Part shown: one piece after another, positions 1,467 to 61,683 of the stretch
Numbering within the stretch: the stretch's first letter is position 1
Layout: every line of letters begins with the position of its first letter
Assembly: GCA_964618315.1 (NCBI GenBank)
Contig: CAZTWQ010000002.1
Coordinates: 22,980 to 86,979 of the forward strand
Reading direction: 5' to 3'
DNA length: 64,000 bases
DNA from: an uncultured Methanosarcinales archaeon
Lineage (GTDB): Archaea > Nanobdellota > Nanobdellia > Woesearchaeales > JACPBV01
Program-made: the position numbers and the translations under genes
The notes under the pieces: model-generated
Told to the model about the DNA's origin: nothing
What the model saw: only the letters and a program-made list of their open reading frames with translations
Databases searched by the model: none

Positions 1467-2345
1467 ATGGCTTTTGTGAGAAAGAAGAAAATAAATGGGC
1501 GATATTATTATTATGTCGTCACATCAACAAGGAATGAAGGAAAGATAAGAAAAGTAGAACGTTATGTTGGGATCAATCCCCCCACAGATAAAGACATCCA
1601 GAAATATGCTGATAAGTTTAATAGTACAAAAGGATTTTTATCATCTAAGGAATTGGATTTTGAGAAAATAAAAAAAGATTATCTCAGTAAATTAGGGGGT
1701 GGAAAAAAAGACGAACTTACTAATATAGAAGAAGAAATCCTTGTTAAGTTTACATATGATACTAATAGGATAGAGGGCTCTAGCTTAACCTATAAAGATA
1801 CCAAAATGCTTTTGCAGGAAGGTATAACACCAAAAGAGAAACCATTAATTGATGTAAAAGAGACTGAGAACCATAAGAAAGCATTCCTTTATATGAAATC
1901 AAATCTTAATAAAGATATCAGTAAAAGATTTATTCTGGAATTACATGGGATATTGAAGAAAGACATTGCAGAAGATGCAGGCATGTTCAGAAACGGCCAG
2001 GTCTTTGTTGGGGATCTTGTCCCGATAAGACCATCTATGATAGAAGCTGAAGTAAGCAACCTTATTTCGTGGTATAAGAAAAATAAAAAGATACCTCCTT
2101 TTGAGCTTGCAACCATTTTTCATTGTGTTTTTGAGAGACTACACCCTTTTTTTGATGGAAATGGGCGGGTCGGAAGATTGCTCTTAAATTTTATACTGCT
2201 TAAAAATGATTATCCTGTAATCATAGTCCAGAACAAGAATAAAAGAAGATATTATAATGCTTTAAGGAGGGCAGATAATGAAAATTATCTTTATATGATC
2301 AAATACCTCTTTTCTGAATTGATGAACCAAAAATATTGGAAATGA
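1467..2345 (+). CDS. Fic/DOC-family protein (AMPylase-type)
   Basis: 292 aa with canonical Fic motif HPFFDGNGRVGR (HxFx[DE]GNGRxxR). The basic N-terminus resembles the second Fic copy at 55767-56711. Confidence 0.85.
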   Translation: MAFVRKKKINGRYYYYVVTSTRNEGKIRKVERYVGINPPTDKDIQKYADKFNSTKGFLSSKELDFEKIKKDYLSKLGGGKKDELTNIEEEILVKFTYDTNRIEGSSLTYKDTKMLLQEGITPKEKPLIDVKETENHKKAFLYMKSNLNKDISKRFILELHGILKKDIAEDAGMFRNGQVFVGDLVPIRPSMIEAEVSNLISWYKKNKKIPPFELATIFHCVFERLHPFFDGNGRVGRLLLNFILLKNDYPVIIVQNKNKRRYYNALRRADNENYLYMIKYLFSELMNQKYWK

Positions 2346-2759: not shown

Positions 2760-3917
2760 CTAAGACTTCTTTTTCTTTGTTTTCTTCTTAGTTTTATTTC
2801 TACGGAAAAAGTTTGTCAATGCAACCTTCATTGCACCCAGACCTAGAAGCATTGCCAGAAACTTTACTATCCCACCAATATAGGGGGTGTTTGTAAGAAC
2901 TATGTATATCACTATACCCAAAGCCATAGGCATCACTAGATTCTTTGGTTTTTTGATTATCAGTTTTCCAATATAAAGTGATGCAAATATCTTTGACAGG
3001 TATATTGCCAGAATATATATCATAATTAATATTATAGTTATAGGCAGCCCGATTATTGTTATTGCAAATAATACTGCTGCTGCTGGAATCGCTATCAATG
3101 ACAATAGTCCAAATAAGATCGTCTGTAATGGCTTTTTTCTTATTGTGTCTGATAGTTTGTTGGATACATTTGGCATGATCAATACTATGATTATGCTTAT
3201 CAGTAATAATACAAAAGCACCAAATAATCTTAAGTCATTTTTGTTTATATCGACTAATTTGATATTTGCTACTTCTTTTGTTATTGTGCCCTCTATCTGT
3301 TCTTCTTTGAACATAATCTCATCGCTTGTGTATTTTAAGTCTCCTTTGATCAAAGCATCTTTCCCTAGCTTGATCTTGCCTGCCTTGACTTCTACATTTC
3401 CTTCGATTATACTGTTTATCTTCAGTTCACCAGCCATGATCACCATATCTCCAAAGACCTGGCTATTGATGTTTATGTTGCCACCCATAGCAATGATGTC
3501 CCCAAGAACATTTTGATTTAGATTTATGTTGCCCCCCATAATCCTGATGTCTCCATTTACACCATTATTTACATTGATATTTCCACCAGCACTCATAAGA
3601 TCGCCAGTTATTATAGAATTAATATTTATATCTCCACCACATGCATGAACCCCTTCTCCAACTGGTGCATTTATATTTATTGCTCCACCAAAAGTTGTAC
3701 TATGCTTGCTTATTGGGGAGTTTACATTAATCTCCCCCCCAAATGCCGTTAAATCACCATTTATATTTGCGTCAATTGTTATCTCATTGCCTGCTGCATA
3801 GAGGTTTTCATCTATTTGATCTTCTACCACTATCTCTCCTTGTTCTATCACTTTAAGTGCAGATACTGCAGTTAATAATATAATCAACACAAACATATAT
3901 GGTATTATTTTTCGCAT
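2760..3917 (-). CDS. membrane protein with bactofilin-like (polymer-forming) beta-helical repeats
   Basis: 385 aa. N-terminal hydrophobic signal/anchor, about nine tandem GD(I/L)xxxGGxININ-type repeats, then a multi-TM C-terminal half and a poly-Lys tail. Confidence 0.5.
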   Translation of the reverse strand: MRKIIPYMFVLIILLTAVSALKVIEQGEIVVEDQIDENLYAAGNEITIDANINGDLTAFGGEINVNSPISKHSTTFGGAININAPVGEGVHACGGDININSIITGDLMSAGGNINVNNGVNGDIRIMGGNINLNQNVLGDIIAMGGNININSQVFGDMVIMAGELKINSIIEGNVEVKAGKIKLGKDALIKGDLKYTSDEIMFKEEQIEGTITKEVANIKLVDINKNDLRLFGAFVLLLISIIIVLIMPNVSNKLSDTIRKKPLQTILFGLLSLIAIPAAAVLFAITIIGLPITIILIMIYILAIYLSKIFASLYIGKLIIKKPKNLVMPMALGIVIYIVLTNTPYIGGIVKFLAMLLGLGAMKVALTNFFRRNKTKKKTKKKKS

Positions 3918-4126
3918 TTGGTTTACCTCCGAGTAAATATAGTATAAGGTTTAAATTCTTAATACCTAACTCATCATAATTATTAACTTTAGGTTTTATG
4001 TATATAAATATTTGTGTTCTTGGATATACTGATAATATACTGTTGCTATACCATGCTAATTATACGATAATTATATATAATACATCAATATTGATGTTTG
4101 TAAACAAAAACTTAAATGGTGATAAC

Positions 4127-5366: not shown

Positions 5367-5960
5367 ATGATAAAAAGCTTTTGGGAAACTACATCTGGGA
5401 AAAGAGTTTTGTTCTTATTAATGATACCTTTAGTTGTTTTACTGAATTATTTTGCTGTGAAGACTGCAATATTTCTGAAAATACCTTTTTTTCTTGATAC
5501 CTGGGCAACTGCATTAGGAGTTATGGTTGGAGGATTAGCAGTTGGTTTAGTTGGAGGTATTTTATACAATCTGATCATGATGACTGAATGGGGGGCTTCT
5601 GCGTGGGTATGGGCTTTTGCAAATATATCAGTTGCATTATTAGTATATACATTCTGGAAATTAGGATGGGTCAATATAAGAAAGCCAGGTAAGTTATTGG
5701 TATCTGCTTTGATTATTGGATTGATTGAGACAGTTGTTGTAATTGTTATATTATTTACTGCATGGGGTGGCGTAGAAACATACGAAGGTGTGCTGCCGAC
5801 TTATACTACTCTTCTTGATGCAACTGGAAGCAAAGTAATAGCTGCAATCGGTGAGAAATTTATTACAATACCTGTTGATCAGATAGTTTCTTTGTTCCTT
5901 GCTGCAATTGTAGCATCTTCAATCTCAAAAAAGTTTATCCTGACTAAGAGGAAAAACTAG
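5367..5960 (+). CDS. polytopic membrane protein (ECF-transporter S-component-like)
   Basis: 197 aa, about 5-6 TM helices, Gly-rich helix GGLAVGLVGGILYNL. Confidence 0.45.
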   Translation: MIKSFWETTSGKRVLFLLMIPLVVLLNYFAVKTAIFLKIPFFLDTWATALGVMVGGLAVGLVGGILYNLIMMTEWGASAWVWAFANISVALLVYTFWKLGWVNIRKPGKLLVSALIIGLIETVVVIVILFTAWGGVETYEGVLPTYTTLLDATGSKVIAAIGEKFITIPVDQIVSLFLAAIVASSISKKFILTKRKN

Positions 5961-6670: not shown

Positions 6671-7672
6671 ATGACAAAAATAGTCCTTACAAATTCATTT
6701 AGGGGTGGAACAGGCAAGTCTACTATAATCAGCAATATAGGCAGTTATCTGGCCACGCTAGGCATGAAGGTAGTGATTATTGATGGTGATATTATAAGTC
6801 CTGGTATTCATGCAATATTCGGTTTGAGCGAAGAGAGTTTTACAAAAACCCTTACTGATTTTTTATTAGGCAAAGGGGATATTGCAGATGCAGTGTATGA
6901 TATTTCAGATAATTTAGGCTTAAGTCAGAATTCCATTATGTTAGTTCCTTCTTCTATTGCCAGCGGTGAGATAGTTACGTTATTGCAGCAGACTGGAAAT
7001 GCTGATAAGATGGCAAATGGGCTTAAAAGAATCAAAGAGAAGTTTGAGCCTGATTTTATATTAATTGATACACATCCGGGTCTTAATGATCCTTTTTTAG
7101 TTGCTACTGGTTTTAGTGATATTATCCTTAATATAGTGAGACCCGACAATCAGGATTACCAGGGAGCACAAGTAAGTGCAGAAATCTCTAGAAAAATGAA
7201 TATAAAGATGTATCTGATACTTAATAAGGTTCATAAAAAGATTGGGAAAAGTAAGTTGATCAAGAATGTAGAAGATGCTTTTAATCTGCCAGTTGCAGGC
7301 GTTTTGCCTTTTTCTGATGATGTGCTTTTTTCTGAATCTCAATTTGTTTTTTCTGAAAAATACCCTAATCATAAGTTTAGTGCGGAAATACATAATATAG
7401 TCACTAAAGTGTTTAACATCAAACCAAAAGAACATTTAGAGGTTATGCATGATCTATTGCAGTATATTAAAGATGGTAAAAAATGTTCGATAGATAATAT
7501 CTCTGGTGCTAAGGATTTGCCTTGTAAGAATTCTGGTGAATATCTGGATACATTTATTGAAGATGGTTTTATCAGGGAAATCAAGGGGAATTTAAAAATA
7601 ACTAAAAAAGGATCTAAATTCCTTAAGAAGTATCAGATTATTAAAAGATTTGCAGATGATTTTAGGCTTTAG
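6671..7672 (+). CDS. MinD/ParA-family P-loop ATPase with C-terminal winged-helix-like domain
   Basis: Deviant Walker A SFRGGTGKST and IIDGD motif, plus a ~85-aa basic C-terminal domain. The ATG at 6671 follows an AGGTGA Shine-Dalgarno site. The stop of the upstream gene overlaps. Confidence 0.75.
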   Translation: MTKIVLTNSFRGGTGKSTIISNIGSYLATLGMKVVIIDGDIISPGIHAIFGLSEESFTKTLTDFLLGKGDIADAVYDISDNLGLSQNSIMLVPSSIASGEIVTLLQQTGNADKMANGLKRIKEKFEPDFILIDTHPGLNDPFLVATGFSDIILNIVRPDNQDYQGAQVSAEISRKMNIKMYLILNKVHKKIGKSKLIKNVEDAFNLPVAGVLPFSDDVLFSESQFVFSEKYPNHKFSAEIHNIVTKVFNIKPKEHLEVMHDLLQYIKDGKKCSIDNISGAKDLPCKNSGEYLDTFIEDGFIREIKGNLKITKKGSKFLKKYQIIKRFADDFRL

Positions 7673-32252: not shown

Positions 32253-32310
32253 GTCCAATATTAGACATTTATGTTTATATTGTTTTATTTAAGTCAATAA
32301 CTTTATAAAT
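32253..32310 (+). promoter_or_regulatory. arg promoter/operator module 1 (upstream of argF)
   Basis: GTCCAATATTAGAC-ATTTAT-GTTTATATTGTT...GTCAATAACTTTATAAAT. It has the same architecture as the modules at 35241 and 46400. Confidence 0.6.
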
Positions 32311-34416: not shown

Positions 34417-35241
34417 ATGGATAAGATATACAAGAAAGCGGAAGTGTTGATCGAAGCATTGCCCTATATCCAGGAATATTCTGGAAAGATTTTTGTTATA
34501 AAGTATGGCGGTAATGTGATGGTTGATGATGATACAAAAAAATCCATCATAGGTGATATAGCTTTGCTTCGTCATGTTGGGATCTTGCCTATAATTGTCC
34601 ATGGTGGCGGACCTGATATAAACAAGGAAGCTCAAAAAGAGCATATCATTCCTAAATTTATCAAAGGTTTAAGGTATACAGATGAAAAAACAATGAAGAT
34701 TGTCAAAAGAGTTACTGGTGATATAAGCAAAGAGATCATAGATATGCTTAAAGATGAGAAATGCAAGGCAATTAATGTAACTTCTGGATTGATAAAGTCT
34801 AAAGTTCGTAGTAAAGAATTAGGATTAGTCGGAGATGTTGTAAGCATAAATGAAAAGAAAATATTGGCTAAACTAAAGAAAGGAATTATTCCAATCATAA
34901 GTCCATTGGGTTATGATGGTAAAAACTTTAACAATATAAATGCAGATACTGTCGCAACTAAAATAGCAGAATCTGTTAAGGCAGAAAAACTGACTATATT
35001 GACCAATGTTGAAGGTGTTTATGAAGAAGGTAACCTTATCAGCCACCTAAGTATAGATGATGTCAAGAAAGGAATTAAGAAAGGCATAATCAGCCGTGGA
35101 ATGATACCTAAGGTTAAGGCTTGTGTCCATGCTATCAACAAAGGAGTTAAAAAAGTTCATCTTATAGATGGATTGCATAAACATGGTTTGTTATTAGAGA
35201 TATTTACTGATACTGGTATTGGTACTGAGATTGTTAAATAG
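34417..35241 (+). CDS. argB: acetylglutamate kinase
   Basis: VIKYGGN and HGGGP motifs, 274 aa. Confidence 0.9.
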   Translation: MDKIYKKAEVLIEALPYIQEYSGKIFVIKYGGNVMVDDDTKKSIIGDIALLRHVGILPIIVHGGGPDINKEAQKEHIIPKFIKGLRYTDEKTMKIVKRVTGDISKEIIDMLKDEKCKAINVTSGLIKSKVRSKELGLVGDVVSINEKKILAKLKKGIIPIISPLGYDGKNFNNINADTVATKIAESVKAEKLTILTNVEGVYEEGNLISHLSIDDVKKGIKKGIISRGMIPKVKACVHAINKGVKKVHLIDGLHKHGLLLEIFTDTGIGTEIVK

Positions 35242-35298
35242 TCTAGTATTGGACATTAATGTCTAATCTGTCTATTTCTAGTCAATAACTTTATAAAT
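35241..35298 (+). promoter_or_regulatory. arg promoter/operator module 2 (upstream of argD)
   Basis: GTCTAGTATTGGAC-ATTAAT-GTCTAATCTGTC...GTCAATAACTTTATAAAT. The 14-bp box is the exact reverse complement of the box in module 3. Confidence 0.6.
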
Positions 35299-38712: not shown

Positions 38713-39162
38713 ATGAAAGCATTAGTCGCTTATTATTCAAGAACAGGAAATTCTAAAAAAATAGCCTTAGAGATAGCTAAGAAGCTAAATGCTGACATAG
38801 ATGAGATCAAAGACAAGAAGAAAAAAGGGATATTTGGTATGGTATGGTCATGCAGGCAGGCTATCAAAAGAAAATCCTCTTTGATTGATTATTCTAAGGA
38901 TGCTTCTGATTATGATCTTGTAGTTCTTGGAGGACCTGTATGGGCATTTAACCTTCTTCCACAACTCAGAAAATACCTTGAAGAGAATAAGATCAAAAAG
39001 CTGGGTTTTTTCCTGACTTATGGGGGCAATCCTGGAAAAAGCTTTGAACAGGCTGATAATCTGAAAAAGACAATAGCTACAGCAGGTTTTATAGATAAAG
39101 ATATTAGGGCTGGAAAGTATAAAGATAATTTGAATAAGTTTGTTAAAGAATTGAGTTTTTGA
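38713..39162 (+). CDS. flavodoxin-like protein
   Basis: MKALVAYYSRTGNSKK N-terminus, 149 aa, 2 nt after argG. Confidence 0.55.
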   Translation: MKALVAYYSRTGNSKKIALEIAKKLNADIDEIKDKKKKGIFGMVWSCRQAIKRKSSLIDYSKDASDYDLVVLGGPVWAFNLLPQLRKYLEENKIKKLGFFLTYGGNPGKSFEQADNLKKTIATAGFIDKDIRAGKYKDNLNKFVKELSF

Positions 39163-39172
39163 TATTCTTATA
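39055..39172 (+). repeat. 118-bp direct repeat, copy A (3' end of flavodoxin-like gene plus 10 nt)
   Basis: Base-for-base identical to 39881-39998, checked by hand. Confidence 0.95.
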
Positions 39173-39272: not shown

Positions 39273-39836
39273 ATGTCCTATGCACTTTATGATGAAACCC
39301 AAGCAGCTTTAAAAGCTATGAATCTACCCTTTCGTGGACCAATAGGACTCCGACAAAGGTGTGATAGTATACCAGGTAGTGTTTTAGTGGCTGCACTTGT
39401 AGATGAATATCTTGGTCCTTTTGTAAAGTCTGTTGGAGACTTAGTAATTGCAGAGGGACATTCATCATCTGCAGGACATGGAATCACCACATATGGAGGT
39501 AGTGGATCAGTTCAGATCGTTCTTAGTGATCTATATCATGGATATGTTTTTAGACAAGCAATTCAAGCGCATAAAGGTAGACGTGAACGGGCTGTTGGTG
39601 ATTTAGCTAATAGTAGTTTCGAAACCAATCCAGCTCAAATAATTAGAAGATATGGTCTTGATGCTAGTGGTAATGATCAGTTTAATAATCCATTTGGTGA
39701 TACATTTTATACAGTAGACTCAATCAAGGCAGCAATAAATCTGGCTGTTGAAAGACGTATAGCTGAGCTGGTAGCAGAAGACGATAAAGAACATCTGGGT
39801 GGTTTAGATCCTAATAAATACCTACTCCAAACTTAA
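39273..39836 (+). CDS. hypothetical protein (atypical composition) in the 708-bp insert
   Basis: 187 aa from the ATG at 39273, with a TATA-like AAATTTAAATAAATT about 25 nt upstream. The track's TTG start at 39195 adds a Lys-rich leader unlike the rest of the protein. Confidence 0.5.
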   Translation: MSYALYDETQAALKAMNLPFRGPIGLRQRCDSIPGSVLVAALVDEYLGPFVKSVGDLVIAEGHSSSAGHGITTYGGSGSVQIVLSDLYHGYVFRQAIQAHKGRRERAVGDLANSSFETNPAQIIRRYGLDASGNDQFNNPFGDTFYTVDSIKAAINLAVERRIAELVAEDDKEHLGGLDPNKYLLQT

Positions 39837-39880: not shown

Positions 39881-39998
39881 GATAATCTGAAAAAGACAAT
39901 AGCTACAGCAGGTTTTATAGATAAAGATATTAGGGCTGGAAAGTATAAAGATAATTTGAATAAGTTTGTTAAAGAATTGAGTTTTTGATATTCTTATA
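39881..39998 (+). repeat. 118-bp direct repeat, copy B (orphan 3' gene fragment)
   Basis: Identical to 39055-39172. It encodes the last 35 codons of the flavodoxin-like gene with no upstream gene body. Confidence 0.95.
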
Positions 39999-55741: not shown

Positions 55742-55770
55742 GTGACCACAATAAATATAAGTGTGGTCAC
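55742..55770. terminator. 9-bp-stem hairpin between convergent HAD and Fic genes
   Basis: GTGACCACA-(11 nt)-TGTGGTCAC. It overlaps the Fic stop codon and is built from the same TGTGACCACA box found in the Fic promoter. Confidence 0.4.
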
Positions 55771-56711
55771 ATATTTTTTAGTTGTTTTTTTAGTGTTTTA
55801 TATTCTTTTAGGATTAGGTCTATCATTGGTCTTAAATTTCCTTCATGTTCGTACATTTGAAGTGCTTGATAATACTCCTGCCTATTCTTTAGTTCAATAT
55901 TCATAGGGGGCAGCCCATTTTTTAACAAAATATTATTAAGCAGTAATCTTCCTACCCTACCATTGCCATCTTGAAATGGGTGAATATTTTCGAATTGATT
56001 GTGAACTACAACTGCAAGCAGCAAAGGGGGGTATTTCTTCTTATTTTCATCATACCATTTGATTAATTCTTTCAATAAACTAGTTACTGATTGAGATGGC
56101 GCACCCCTATGGATAATATTTCCAAATTTATCCCTTATCCCTACTTCAACTCCTTTTGGCCTGATTTTTCCTGCAAAATCTTTTGAGTTTTTAAAGCAGA
56201 ATCTATGTAAGTCTCTTATTAATCTTAATGATATATGTACTTTTGTCTCCCTTATATAGTCTACTGCTCCTGCTACACCATAAGTTTCTGAGATCTCCCA
56301 TTTTGAGGTATCTTGGGGCCATTCATCATTTTCAATTATATTTTCTACTTCATGAAACGTTACAGTTGAACCTTCTATAGCATTAGTATCATAAGTAAAT
56401 CTTTCTGTAAAATGTAGCCAATCCCTTTTAGATAAATGGTTTATCCTTATTGTTTCTTTTATGTTAAGTTTTTCTAATTCTTTTATCTCTTTAGTTGATA
56501 ATATATAGTTTAAAGGATTTCTTATTGTCTTGTAGCTCTTTATTTGTTCTTTGATCATTTCTTCGGCTCTTTTTTTAAGTTTCTCTAGCTCTTTTTTAGA
56601 TAAGTTAGACCCCAGATACCTCCTGATCTTTCTTGTTTTATCTTTCTCTCTAAAAGAATATGTAAGATAATATAGTATTTTCTTGCCTTTTTTTCTTATT
56701 TCTATAAACAT
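55767..56711 (-). CDS. Fic/DOC-family protein, second paralogue
   Basis: HPFQDGNGRVGR motif. The start is taken at Met26 of the track ORF (MFIEIRKKGKK...) by analogy with the first Fic N-terminus. Confidence 0.8.
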   Translation of the reverse strand: MFIEIRKKGKKILYYLTYSFREKDKTRKIRRYLGSNLSKKELEKLKKRAEEMIKEQIKSYKTIRNPLNYILSTKEIKELEKLNIKETIRINHLSKRDWLHFTERFTYDTNAIEGSTVTFHEVENIIENDEWPQDTSKWEISETYGVAGAVDYIRETKVHISLRLIRDLHRFCFKNSKDFAGKIRPKGVEVGIRDKFGNIIHRGAPSQSVTSLLKELIKWYDENKKKYPPLLLAVVVHNQFENIHPFQDGNGRVGRLLLNNILLKNGLPPMNIELKNRQEYYQALQMYEHEGNLRPMIDLILKEYKTLKKQLKNM

Positions 56712-56723
56712 ACTAATATATAG

Positions 56724-56765
56724 TGTGACCACATATTTAAACTTTTCTATTTTATGTGACCACAT
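56724..56765 (-). promoter_or_regulatory. two direct TGTGACCACAT boxes bracketing the Fic TATA box
   Basis: 11-bp repeats at 56724-56734 and 56755-56765, 31 bp apart, with a TTTAAATAT TATA-like element between them on the minus strand. Confidence 0.4.
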
Positions 56766-56815
56766 AATATCATATAACCAATACATTTAAAAAAACAAAA
56801 TAATTCTTAAATACT

Positions 56816-57610
56816 ATGAAAATAATAAAGATTCCTTCATCTCAAGGGGGTCTAGGAAAAGCAGATGGTTCAGAGCTAGCCCCAGATAAGATTATTGAGC
56901 AGACTAAAGAATTATTCATGTCTGAAGATAAAGTTCTGCCTGTCTTTGATGTTGATTCAGTTGATGTCATAAGTTCAAATATAGAAGAGACAAATAAGAA
57001 CATATTCAACAAAGCAAAAGAGGCACTATCAAATAATACAAAGCCATTGTTTTTAGGCGGTGACCATTCTGTAACATTTCCTATTGTCAAAGCCTTTTCA
57101 GAAACTTATCCTTCTAACCCAGGAATCATAATATTTGATGCACATCCTGATTGTGAAAATGATTTTACACCACCTACGCAGGAAGACCTGGTCAATGGGC
57201 TGGTCAATCAGAATATTATAAAAAAAGAGAATATTATCTTAGTAGGTATCAGAAATTGGGATAAGAATGAGATTGAGTTCCTTTCTAAGAATAATATAAA
57301 GTATTTCTCCATGAAAGAGATCATGGCTAATGGTATACATGATGTTTCTGATTCTTTTATGAGCGTCGCAAAAGATTTTTCTGACCTTTACATAAGCATT
57401 GACATAGATGTGCTTGACCCTGCATTTGCTCCAGGTACTGGTTATATCGAACCAGGGGGACTAAGTACAAGAGAATTGCTATTTTTCTTACAAAGGCTGA
57501 AAAGACTGAAGAATCTTCGTGCCTATGATCTTGTTGAGATAAATCCTGCTAAAGATATCAATGATATGACTTCTAAAGTAGGGGCTAAGATATTGGTTGA
57601 GTTGTGTTAG
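56816..57610 (+). CDS. arginase/agmatinase-family ureohydrolase
   Basis: GGDHSVT, DAHPD, and SIDIDVLDPAFAPGTG Mn-binding motifs. Confidence 0.85.
   Translation: MKIIKIPSSQGGLGKADGSELAPDKIIEQTKELFMSEDKVLPVFDVDSVDVISSNIEETNKNIFNKAKEALSNNTKPLFLGGDHSVTFPIVKAFSETYPSNPGIIIFDAHPDCENDFTPPTQEDLVNGLVNQNIIKKENIILVGIRNWDKNEIEFLSKNNIKYFSMKEIMANGIHDVSDSFMSVAKDFSDLYISIDIDVLDPAFAPGTGYIEPGGLSTRELLFFLQRLKRLKNLRAYDLVEINPAKDINDMTSKVGAKILVELC
57560..57610 (+). repeat. ureohydrolase 3' end, copy A of a diverged direct repeat
   Basis: The last 14 codons plus stop are re-found at 58336-58380. Confidence 0.8.
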
Positions 57611-57651
57611 ATTACAAAATTATTTAAATAAAAGCAAATATTTATATATTA

Positions 57652-57984
57652 ATGAATGATAATGAATATATAATAAAATATTTAAGGAAATATAAAAAAG
57701 AAGATATCTTAATAGATAAACACGCTGAATTAAGGGCTAAACAAAGGGACCTCGATTTAGAAGAAGTATATTATAATTTGTTAAACCCTTCCAAAAGATT
57801 ATCATTCACAAATAAACTTGAAGAAGAAAGCGATGGTTTAGAAAAATTTAAATGTTATTTTGGCTATAGTAAAACACAATGTCAAATTTACATAATAAAA
57901 TTTAGTGACAAATTAATCATCAAAACAATAATAAAATTAAATAAAAGATGGCAGAAAAGGGCTGAAAAATATGGAAAAATTTAA
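57652..57984 (+). CDS. DUF4258-like small protein (putative toxin)
   Basis: 110 aa with the HAELRAKQRDL pattern typical of DUF4258 (from memory). It overlaps the next ORF. Confidence 0.4.
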   Translation: MNDNEYIIKYLRKYKKEDILIDKHAELRAKQRDLDLEEVYYNLLNPSKRLSFTNKLEEESDGLEKFKCYFGYSKTQCQIYIIKFSDKLIIKTIIKLNKRWQKRAEKYGKI

Positions 57985-58327
57985 TATAGATTATGATAAC
58001 GAATCAGATGATTTGTTTCTTTATGCTAAAGAGAAAAGTAAGGGTTCAGTTGAAATTGGAGACTTAATATTGGATTTTGATAGGGGTGGAAAATTAGTGG
58101 GTATAGAGATGTTGAATGCAACTAATTTTTTATGTGATTGTGTGGCAGATAAAGATAAAATTTCTAAAGAATTCTTATCTAAGCTAGTGAAATGTGAAAT
58201 CGAAGTTAAACAAAAAAATAATTTCTTATTTATAAAAGTTAATTTAATCGGTAAGGATGTGATTGTTCCTTGTCCAATAAATGCTCCAATTGTTACTGAA
58301 ACAAGCCCTGCATTGGCTTATACTTAG
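57971..58327 (+). CDS. DUF2283-like small protein (putative antitoxin partner)
   Basis: 118 aa with YDNESDDLFLY...GKLVGIEML, the pattern of DUF2283. Confidence 0.45.
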   Translation: MEKFNIDYDNESDDLFLYAKEKSKGSVEIGDLILDFDRGGKLVGIEMLNATNFLCDCVADKDKISKEFLSKLVKCEIEVKQKNNFLFIKVNLIGKDVIVPCPINAPIVTETSPALAYT

Positions 58328-58330
58328 AGA

Positions 58331-58380
58331 AATGTATGACTTCTAAAGTAGGAGCTAAAATATTAGTTGAGTTATGTTGA
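58331..58380 (+). repeat. orphan copy B of the ureohydrolase 3' end
   Basis: It still reads MTSKVGAKILVELC-stop. It differs from copy A by four third-position G-to-A changes and a TAG-to-TGA stop change. Confidence 0.8.
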
Positions 58381-58426
58381 TAAAAACATAAATCTTTTAT
58401 AAAAGATATATTTCTTATTTAATGAA

Positions 58427-59779
58427 ATGTCAAGAATAATGTTCAAAAGCACAAACAAACAAGCACCATTAGTCAGTTTTAAACAAGCTTTGCTTAAGGG
58501 TCAGGCTCCTGATTATGGATTATATATGCCTACTTCCATTCCAAGATTAAGCAAAGAAGAGATTAATTCTTTTAAGAATAAGGAATATCATGAGATCGCT
58601 TTTGATGTTGCTAAAAAATTTCTACAAGAAGAGATAAGCGATGAGGAATTAAGAAGCTTATGTAAAGATGCTTATAATTTTGATGTCCCTTTGGAAAAGA
58701 TTGATGGTAATTTATACATAATGAGGTTAGACAGAGGACCTACAGCTTCTTTTAAAGATTTTGCAGCTAGGTTGATGGGAAGGCTGATGCATTATTTTGC
58801 TAAGCAGGAAGATCAGAGATTAACTGTCTTAGTTGCAACTTCAGGTGACACTGGCGGCGCAGTAGCAGATGCTTTTTACGGATTAGATAATGTCAATGTT
58901 ATTGTTTTGTTTCCAGAAAAAGAGATTTCAGAAAGACAAAGAAAACAAATGACAACATTAGGCAAGAATGTCAAGGCATATGCAGTCAAAGGAAAGTTTG
59001 ATGATTGTCAGGCCATAGTAAAAAGGGCTTTTAATGATCCTGAATTAAATAATCTAAATCTTACATCTGCAAACTCAATCAACTTCGGAAGGCTATTGCC
59101 CCAGATTGTCTATTATATATATGCTTATTCAAGATTAGGTTCTGATAAGATTACATTTGCAGTACCCTCTGGTAATTTTGGAGATCTGATGGGTGGTATC
59201 TTAGGGAGAGAGATGGGGATGCCTTTTGATAAATTTATCGTAGCTGTTAATGAGAATGATGAATTTCCTAACTTTTTAGAAAAAGGGGAGTATAAAGCAG
59301 TTGTTCCATCTAAAGAATGCAGTTCAAATGCTATGAATGTAGGACATCCTTCGAATTTAGCCAGATTAATAAACCTTTATGGTGGTTGGTTAAAAGATGA
59401 AAGAGATTCTTCTGGTAAAGTTATCAAAAAAGGTGTTTTGAAAGAAAGACCTAATATGGATAATTTAAGAAATGATTTTATCGGTTTTTCAATCAGTGAC
59501 CATGAAGTAGATGAAACAATAAAAGAAACTCAGGATAAATATAATACAATAATAGAACCACATGGAGCTGTTGGACTAGCTGCTGTCAAGAAAGCTGCAT
59601 TGCCTGGATTAATAGTTTCTCTGGAAACAGCTGATCCTGCAAAGTTTCCTGATAAGATAAATGAATTATTAGATGTAGATCCTAAAGTTCCAGATTCATT
59701 ATCTAGTTTAGATGGCAAAGAAGAAAGTTTTGAAGTTATTGAAGATAGTTATGAAGAATTTAAAAGTAAGATAGTATAA
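58427..59779 (+). CDS. thrC: threonine synthase
   Basis: PLP-Lys motif GPTASFKDFAAR and SGDTGGA loop, 450 aa. Confidence 0.85.
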   Translation: MSRIMFKSTNKQAPLVSFKQALLKGQAPDYGLYMPTSIPRLSKEEINSFKNKEYHEIAFDVAKKFLQEEISDEELRSLCKDAYNFDVPLEKIDGNLYIMRLDRGPTASFKDFAARLMGRLMHYFAKQEDQRLTVLVATSGDTGGAVADAFYGLDNVNVIVLFPEKEISERQRKQMTTLGKNVKAYAVKGKFDDCQAIVKRAFNDPELNNLNLTSANSINFGRLLPQIVYYIYAYSRLGSDKITFAVPSGNFGDLMGGILGREMGMPFDKFIVAVNENDEFPNFLEKGEYKAVVPSKECSSNAMNVGHPSNLARLINLYGGWLKDERDSSGKVIKKGVLKERPNMDNLRNDFIGFSISDHEVDETIKETQDKYNTIIEPHGAVGLAAVKKAALPGLIVSLETADPAKFPDKINELLDVDPKVPDSLSSLDGKEESFEVIEDSYEEFKSKIV

Positions 59780-61594: not shown

Positions 61595-61683
61595 GGGCCT
61601 ATAGCATAGCCTGGATAGTGCAATTGGCTTCGGATAGAAATAGAAGCTACCAGTTGACCGGGGTTCGAATCCTCGTAGGCCCA
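61595..61683 (+). tRNA. tRNA-Arg (anticodon UCG) with 15-nt intron after position 37
   Basis: Hand-folded cloverleaf. Acceptor GGGCCTA/TAGGCCC; D arm GCAT..GTGC; anticodon stem ATTGG/CCAGT with loop CT-TCG-G. Intron at 61634-61648; T arm CGGGG-TTCGAAT-CCTCG. A TATA-like GTTTTATATAG lies about 28 nt upstream. Confidence 0.8.

Follow-up and report, generated by a model that had tools for sequence, protein, structure and literature searches.

The 3' end of an arginase/agmatinase-family gene (hereafter ure) occurs twice, on either side of a small toxin-antitoxin (TA)-like module, in an uncultured DPANN archaeon of the Woesearchaeales. The locus lies in a stretch of 64,000 nucleotides (nt) of contig CAZTWQ010000002.1 (assembly GCA_964618315.1, positions 22,980 to 86,979 of the forward strand), referred to below as the window, whose own coordinates are used throughout. 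The closest described parallel is the icd/icdC locus of Escherichia coli K-12 at e14 and phage 21. According to PMC13626634, citing Hill et al. 1989, the 3' end of icd is present twice at e14: the insert supplies a replacement tail and the original tail is left on the far side as an orphan pseudogene. According to the same source, the two copies differ mostly by silent or conservative changes. The duplicated 3' end, a functional gene that runs into the insert and an orphaned original tail are common to the icd and ure loci. They differ in that e14 is a 15-kb prophage that has its own integrase and can be excised, whereas the insert at ure measures 0.72 kb, consists only of the two-gene TA-like module, has no recombinase that could be found and resides in a DPANN host.

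A second parallel is provided by the orphaned 3' regions at type VI secretion system (T6SS) and Rhs loci, which have been attributed to homology-facilitated illegitimate recombination (PMC5361080). As is proposed here for ure, in the effector-immunity loci of Rhs, contact-dependent inhibition and T6SS systems an incoming module that shares a conserved anchor at its upstream side takes the place of the resident 3' end, and the former 3' region is left behind downstream as an orphan; the modules, composed of a toxin plus a protector, are acquired horizontally (PMC5361080). The displaced 3' ends at those loci encode different toxin domains, a diversity that is the very purpose of the exchange. 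The two ure tails, both parts of a metabolic enzyme, encode an identical peptide, which makes their displacement neutral in function, and the TA pair forms a separate operon.

Transfer hotspots between core genes offer a further comparison. Double homologous recombination at hotspots normally leaves no scar. The position between ure and its downstream neighbor thrC resembles such hotspots in that it is empty in some relatives and holds unrelated cargo in others, but it differs from them in having kept a duplicated gene tail. The insert is read here, with a probability of roughly one half, as a recombination scar in which a TA pair was imported from a related genome together with the 3' end of the donor's ure.

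The duplicated tail of ure

The features of the locus, all on the plus strand, are as follows.

56816 to 57610, plus strand: ure, an arginase/agmatinase-family gene of 264 amino acids (aa; Pfam Arginase, E = 4.7e-65), the target gene with the duplicated 3' end
57566 to 57610, plus strand: tail copy 1, the last 14 codons of ure and the stop TAG, in the ure frame
57611 to 57651, plus strand: spacer of 41 nt that links the ure stop to the toxin start, in the same length class as the empty sites of 39-41 nt in relatives
57652 to 57984, plus strand: toxin-like open reading frame (ORF) of 110 aa, a divergent DUF4258 (predicted RNase of BECR/RelE-ParE or colicin-like fold)
57971 to 58327, plus strand: DUF2283 (YuzE-like) ORF of 118 aa, the presumed antitoxin
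58328 to 58335, plus strand: junction of 8 nt, AGAAATGT, that links the antitoxin gene with the orphan tail
58336 to 58380, plus strand: tail copy 2 (the orphan), the same 14 codons and the stop TGA, with no ure body upstream
58381 to 58426, plus strand: spacer of 46 nt before thrC, aligned by eye, without statistical support, with the ure-thrC spacers of empty-site relatives
58427 to 59779, plus strand: thrC, threonine synthase (Pfam Thr_synth_N and PALP), the conserved downstream neighbor of ure

Both 45-nt tail copies translate to MTSKVGAKILVELC followed by a stop. They differ at six bases, all of them silent. Four are third-position changes from G in copy 1 to A in copy 2, at tail positions 18, 24, 30 and 39, such that the codons GGG, AAG, TTG and TTG of copy 1 read GGA, AAA, TTA and TTA in the orphan; the other two, at tail positions 44-45, convert the stop TAG into TGA. 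The recurrence of the tail and the kind of its differences had been noticed in a preliminary description made from the letters of the window, together with an insert of about 0.72 kb, and both were found as described, the measured gap between the copies being 725 nt and the repeat period at ure 770 nt. Identity is perfect over 17 nt (ATGACTTCTAAAGTAGG) at the 5' end of the repeat. The direct repeats at the two ends of the insert overlap the 3' end of ure, the reading frame of which is restored, and the orphan itself begins with ATG and ends in a stop codon.

Among the short-range direct repeats of the window, the tail repeat (family D3) ranks second in strength. Local alignments of the flanks score 70-78, far above the maxima of 27-29 obtained with shuffled sequences, and in a blastn self-alignment (E = 4e-13) the match pairs 57560-57656 with 58331-58426, with weak similarity to the orphan starting at 57560, just before copy 1. 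In the upstream direction the similarity of the orphan stops 3 nt past the stop of the DUF2283 gene, and the more extended ureohydrolase pseudogene that the preliminary description had named as another possible source of the match was not found. Downstream of the stop codons the repeat is less distinct. The spacer part tested by itself gives a marginal P of about 0.005-0.04, and a nhmmer profile built from the ure-thrC spacers of relatives detects the spacer of neither copy in the window; it is suggestive only that the duplication may have extended through the spacer. The 57611-57651 spacer may derive from the ure-thrC spacer as a diverged duplicate, its similarity being marginal as well (P about 0.005-0.07), and its right end resembles the sequence upstream of toxin homologs elsewhere.

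The arrangement of ure tail and TA module was recovered by exact-protein look-ups on over 20 contigs, which stem from many different samples. Contigs of four samples share 100% identity across the 2,964 nt that span ure and thrC, a fifth contig matches over the part that it covers and a sixth, 600 nt long, matches exactly; the matching contigs come from SPAdes, JGI and MEGAHIT k=141 assemblies. The population is clonal, as all contigs of the same species are identical in arrangement and the 90% protein clusters hold almost no variants.

The toxin-antitoxin-like module

DUF4258 proteins are classed among the BECR-fold TA toxins (RelE/ParE or colicin-like), with unknown target (PMC11980606; bioRxiv 10.64898/2026.08.28.747851). 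The module at ure consists of two co-oriented ORFs that overlap by 14 nt. The second, which ends in ..GCTTATACTTAGAGAAATGT, matches Pfam DUF2283 with 39.4 bits (E = 6.6e-10), above the cut-off of 23. The first matches DUF4258 with 17.8 bits (E = 0.004), below the gathering cut-off of 25 bits, though 17 of the 19 members of its family match DUF4258, the best of them at 3.5e-5. The toxin profile yielded no sequence match in the PDB and the toxin ORF none in NCBIfam or PADLOC. When an AlphaFold2 model of the toxin (pLDDT 87) was compared with known structures, the fold matches of highest probability were TA toxins, 7vd7_A (probability 0.96, TM 0.55/0.62) and BrnT 3u97 (probability 0.92), with weak E-values of about 0.1 and none below 0.001. 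The TA-like nature of the pair, proposed in the preliminary description, is thereby supported, with a DUF2283 second gene and a divergent DUF4258 as the first. The 110-aa ORF and its DUF2283 partner would act as toxin and antitoxin.

With the type II TA family of DUF4258 toxins the pair shares two small overlapping ORFs, DUF4258-like and DUF2283, that are conserved together in variable regions of many genomes. It differs from that family in that its toxin falls below the Pfam cut-off and precedes the antitoxin, the order listed in PMC11980606 being antitoxin-toxin. For this branch of the family toxin activity is a prediction.

The module is mobile. The same pair was found at five other loci (L091, L094, L095, L097 and L120); the ORFs of L095 are separate, and those of the other four overlap by 14 nt as in the window. 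These homologs, 59-79% identical, are located on other Woesearchaeota-like contigs in unrelated contexts, among them a TA island that also contains a DDE transposase (L091), a site adjoining ParE and a Phage_integrase gene that is truncated (L094), and a site after an amidohydrolase (L097). At the five loci no duplicated tail of an upstream gene flanks the module and no ure tail is present, and the recurrent insertion mechanism that the preliminary description had suggested is not established. A toxin homolog with 75% identity (L121, 202-534) lacks a DUF2283 partner and is followed by an unrelated gene, which indicates either a solitary toxin or the swapping of partners. In L091, repeats of 162 nt flank the module; they were considered as an insertion scar and rejected, as they are two intact paralogous small genes (3786-3946 and 5737-5897). 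The repeats are 85% identical over the 162 nt, the encoded paralogs of 58-60 aa differ at 10 of 47 residues, and the two genes bracket the TA module plus a nucleotidyltransferase gene.

The cassette has a GC content of 26.3% and is the lowest-GC stretch of 676 nt in the window, the mean of which is about 34% (34.4%, sd 2.9, for stretches of that length). At the insert there are no terminal inverted repeats, only imperfect AT-rich inverted repeats at noise level, and the region contains no attC-like hairpin, no terminator-like structure and no Rfam family. Neither an integrase nor a transposase turned up inside the insert, in the 6 kb to its left and right or among 30 other window ORFs; the recombinase scan compared 37 window ORFs with Pfam in all, the window having 59 ORFs of 100 aa or more, of which about 22 lay outside this direct scan. 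A collection of viral contigs contained no match to the toxin family or to the tail pattern. An integron gene cassette was rejected on the grounds that there is a single cassette, no attC hairpin and no integrase. An insertion sequence or miniature inverted-repeat transposable element was likewise rejected, given that terminal inverted repeats are lacking and that the repeat, at least 45 nt long and diverged, is not a target-site duplication.

The ure-thrC spacer in relatives

In the closest relatives available, the ure proteins of which are 67-79% identical to that of the window, ure is followed by thrC. The site is empty in L017, L105 and L106, where thrC starts 39-41 nt after ure ends; in the window the orphan tail lies 46 nt from thrC. 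The empty site is the ancestral state. Since the orphan is placed at this distance and the spacer aligns with the empty sites, the block of tail copy 2, spacer and thrC looks like the ancestral contiguous arrangement. The orthology of the 58381-58426 spacer is judged from position, length and an alignment by eye.

Five relatives carry unrelated inserts of 0.2-0.8 kb in the ure-thrC spacer that differ from one another.

L011: two small membrane ORFs
L012: about 220 nt of non-coding DNA
L013: an ORF of 124 aa, receiver-domain-like by eye
L014: a HAD hydrolase
L015: a membrane ORF on the reverse strand

A DUF378-like gene, recognized by eye, is also among the spacer cargo of relatives. As unrelated cargo has accumulated in the same spacer of L011-L015, the ure-thrC spacer is a small hotspot, within which the points of insertion vary among the relatives. 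A duplicated spacer around the L013 cargo was considered and dropped (P = 0.13).

Two further repeats were seen on contigs of relatives. In a more distant Woesearchaeon (L064), an intergenic direct repeat of 125 nt (5794-5917 and 6803-6926, 82% identical) brackets ure and contains an internal GC-rich hairpin (CTCCTCC...GGGGGAGG) with no Rfam match. In L011, a perfect GC-rich repeat of 31 nt, GACATTCCCCGTAAGGGACATCCCCCTTGTC (3901-3931 and 5860-5890), flanks a reverse-strand gene of 546 aa in an otherwise AT-rich genome.

Proposed import of the module from a related genome

The silent nature of all differences between the tails was evaluated under models of decay, in a test applied post hoc. If one copy had decayed neutrally, six silent differences would have a P of about 0.00005-0.0006. 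If only changes from G/C to A/T are allowed, four to five silent changes have a P of about 0.001-0.006, and a duplication in situ with a constrained gene copy and a free orphan gives a P of about 0.002-0.006. Divergence confined to silent sites is thus improbable under decay, with a P of about 0.0006-0.006 when neutral and AT-biased decay are taken together, and both tails therefore appear to have been shaped inside working genes, as had been supposed from the substitutions themselves. Among orthologs the peptide MTSKVGAKILVELC is conserved although their sequences vary synonymously, stop codons included. The differences are best read as the divergence between two functional orthologs that predates their joining and not as later decay. 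On this silent-only divergence, import of one copy with the cassette from a related genome, already suggested in the preliminary description, is the best reading.

The orphan is probably the resident tail and the in-gene copy 1 the one supplied by the donor. The orphan is contiguous with the thrC spacer and therefore resident by position. At all four variable sites it carries the preferred codon of the genome and the in-gene copy the minor codon, which lends modest support to the same polarity. Position and codon usage were used to assign the polarity because neither a donor nor a strain of the same species with an empty site was found. The lack of decay in the orphan fits a recent event.

The course of events that we infer, including the identity of the donor copy and the formation of the junctions, would start from an ancestral locus of ure, a spacer of about 40 nt and thrC, in which the junction of the ure body with the A-allele tail would read ...GATATCAATGATATGACTTCTAAAGTAGGAGCTAAAATATTAG. 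The donor would have been a related Woesearchaeon and the incoming segment would have comprised the 3' end of its ure, probably the downstream spacer, and the two-gene TA-like module. On the left, entry would have occurred by recombination anchored in ure homology, and on the right by an illegitimate join just upstream of resident ure codon 251. Such a process would correspond to homology-facilitated illegitimate recombination, or "3'-end displacement"; the structure would look no different if a small circle had entered by a single crossover. As an outcome, ure would end in the donor tail (57566-57610), and the resident tail (58336-58380) would have moved 770 nt downstream, as a non-functional orphan still joined to the promoter spacer of thrC. 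Only 3-8 nt separate the antitoxin stop from the orphan, which runs on into the ancestral spacer and thrC, the position of a displaced 3' fragment directly downstream of the module. At 58331-58335, AATG-T matches the AATGAT of ure with a 1-nt gap and may represent microhomology at the illegitimate join. Along ure, the profile of codons and of G at third positions displays no clear crossover breakpoint.

Several observations weigh against this reading. When ure, a 99-aa fragment of it, the antitoxin and thrC were looked up as exact proteins, only clonal sequences were returned and neither a same-species empty site nor a donor, and a metagenome scan with ure recovered only relatives at 79% identity or less, with no donor or empty-site sister. 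The right junction, just 3 nt past the antitoxin stop, is unusually tidy for an illegitimate join, and from a donor tail with G-ending codons a less AT-rich cassette would be expected. With four silent differences in 14 sense codons, by a rough count about one third of the synonymous sites, homologous recombination would be expected to be inefficient. The post hoc silent-change test amounts to strong support and not to proof. Finally, no orphan tail accompanies the other cargo in L011-L015 and no repeats flank the homologous TA modules, which leaves a singular event with a mechanism from which no general rule can be drawn.

A second duplicated gene tail in the window

A comparable geometry exists at 39 kb, again on the plus strand.

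39055 to 39172, plus strand: repeat copy 1, which covers the final 108 nt of a flavodoxin-like gene (38713-39162) and a further 10 nt
39273 to 39836, plus strand: inserted ORF of 187 aa with no family match
39881 to 39998, plus strand: repeat copy 2, the orphan flavodoxin tail, 100% identical to copy 1

The repeat is 118 nt long, with 708 nt between the copies and a period of 826 nt, and both copies are present in the k=141 contigs L102 and L103. The 187-aa ORF has a single homolog among 5.8 billion proteins (P0153, 55% identity), which in the contig of a relative (JGI sample 3300072015, 10,401 bp) lies between argG and the flavodoxin gene, i.e. on the other, upstream side of the flavodoxin gene, so that the gene order is permuted. 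The perfect identity of the repeats and the changed gene order suggest that the locus was rearranged locally and recently, or that the exchange took place inside the population, and do not indicate an import from a diverged relative. The geometric match with the ure locus, which the preliminary description had pointed out, was borne out, but a single recurrent insertion mechanism was not: the repeats are 100% identical, the homolog is permuted, and no further orphan gene tails were detected in a scan of about 984 kb covering the window and related Woesearchaeota loci. The other direct repeats in the 984 kb are shared promoter or operator sequences, the starts of tandem paralogs and intergenic elements.

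Alternative explanations

The first alternative is site-specific integration of the type known for e14 and phage 21 at icd. The attachment site would mimic the 3' end of ure, with its core within the first 17 or so identical bases (ATGACTTCTAAAGTAGG), and the element would supply the replacement tail; the present insert would be either a tiny cassette devoid of an integrase and mobilized in trans or the remnant of a larger element after a deletion. The geometry is exactly that of attL and attR at a gene 3' end, with a silently diverged tail supplied by the element as in the precedent (PMC13626634), the perfectly identical 17 nt stand where a core would be expected, and one homologous TA module (L094) adjoins a truncated Phage_integrase gene. 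We nevertheless consider this explanation unlikely. The recombinase scan described above found no integrase, the cassette is trimmed to a promoter and two ORFs with no other element genes, the homologous modules occur at five loci without flanking repeats or a ure tail, and neither cassette nor tail was found in the viral contigs. The varying insertion points of the other cargo in the ure-thrC spacer do not fit a fixed core.

In a second alternative the tail, perhaps with the spacer, was copied locally during the insertion, through template switching or the repair of a staggered break, and the orphan then drifted toward A/T. All four sense-codon differences have G in the gene and A in the orphan, as AT-biased mutation in a genome of 34% GC predicts, and the 39-kb case with its 100% identical repeats looks like a fresh local duplication. 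Duplication in situ is improbable all the same: silent-only change retains its low P even if only mutations to A/T are admitted, the conversion of TAG into TGA requires a change from A to G against the bias and keeps a stop that no longer matters, and the clonal population shows no sign of decay of the orphan.

A third possibility combines the inserts at 57.5 kb and 39 kb as products of "tail-mimic cassettes", small (about 0.8 kb) DPANN cassettes without an integrase that would carry the 3' end of their target gene, perhaps with the promoter spacer, such that host recombination restores both gene and promoter. If this were true, such cassettes would be a recurrent way of adding genes at gene ends in very compact genomes, with two cases in 64 kb. 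We regard the proposal as quite improbable.

Very little speaks for a functional orphan, according to which the duplicated tail is part of the upstream regulatory region of thrC or a translated upstream ORF of 14 codons, and only insertions that duplicate it are tolerated. The orphan does begin with ATG, end in a stop and lie 46 nt upstream of thrC, a spacing that resembles that of the empty sites. Yet in the empty-site relatives this stretch is nothing more than the ure 3' end, thrC persists in relatives with other cargo although no tail copy precedes it, neither an Rfam match nor a notable structure was detected, and regulatory constraint would not produce codon-wise silent changes.

An assembly artefact, in the form of a chimera of two strains joined at their common tail, might be suspected from the metagenomic origin of the sequence and from an N-gap inside the 39-kb repeat in one SPAdes scaffold, but it is effectively refuted, as the two copies differ and a collapsed repeat therefore cannot explain the structure, and the same junctions were obtained with 100% identity across five samples and three assembly pipelines, including one at k=141, which is longer than either repeat.

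Other features of the window

The ure protein scores below the NCBIfam cut-offs for agmatinase, arginase and hutG. Its homologs are annotated as Woesearchaeota or Nanoarchaeota, and an Alba gene lies near the locus.

Two Fic-domain genes, at 1467-2345 (plus strand) and 55767-56786 (minus strand), match the candidate defense families SoFic/PDC-S04 of PADLOC (E down to 3e-45). The latter is divergent from ure, which thereby lies between a Fic gene and the TA module; it was the one of the two that was looked for beside ure in relatives, and it was found there in none. Two perfect copies of TGTGACCACATA, 31 nt apart (56724-56735 and 56755-56766), occupy the divergent region between Fic gene and ure and may serve as an operator.

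A 58-nt intergenic repeat (32253-32310 and 35241-35298, 78-82% identical) that ends in GTCAATAACTTTATAAAT is located upstream of two gene clusters with paralogous aminotransferase genes and looks like a common promoter or regulatory region. At 61595-61683, a tRNA of 89 nt was recognized by Rfam (49.9 bits) and missed by ARAGORN, which suggests an intron-containing archaeal tRNA.

Significance

Recombination scars of this kind are known, and the ure locus, a small hotspot, supplies a new instance from DPANN archaea. A single case adds an example and not a new principle, and the event is real but of a fairly ordinary kind. Its value is that of a clean trace, open to dating, left by gene transfer among related DPANN archaea, a group for which little is known of how genes are exchanged. 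The silently diverged tail points to incoming DNA from a congeneric genome that would have entered via the homology of a housekeeping gene. If more such scars were to be found genome-wide, the relatedness of donors and the ends of recombination tracts would become measurable in uncultured archaea.

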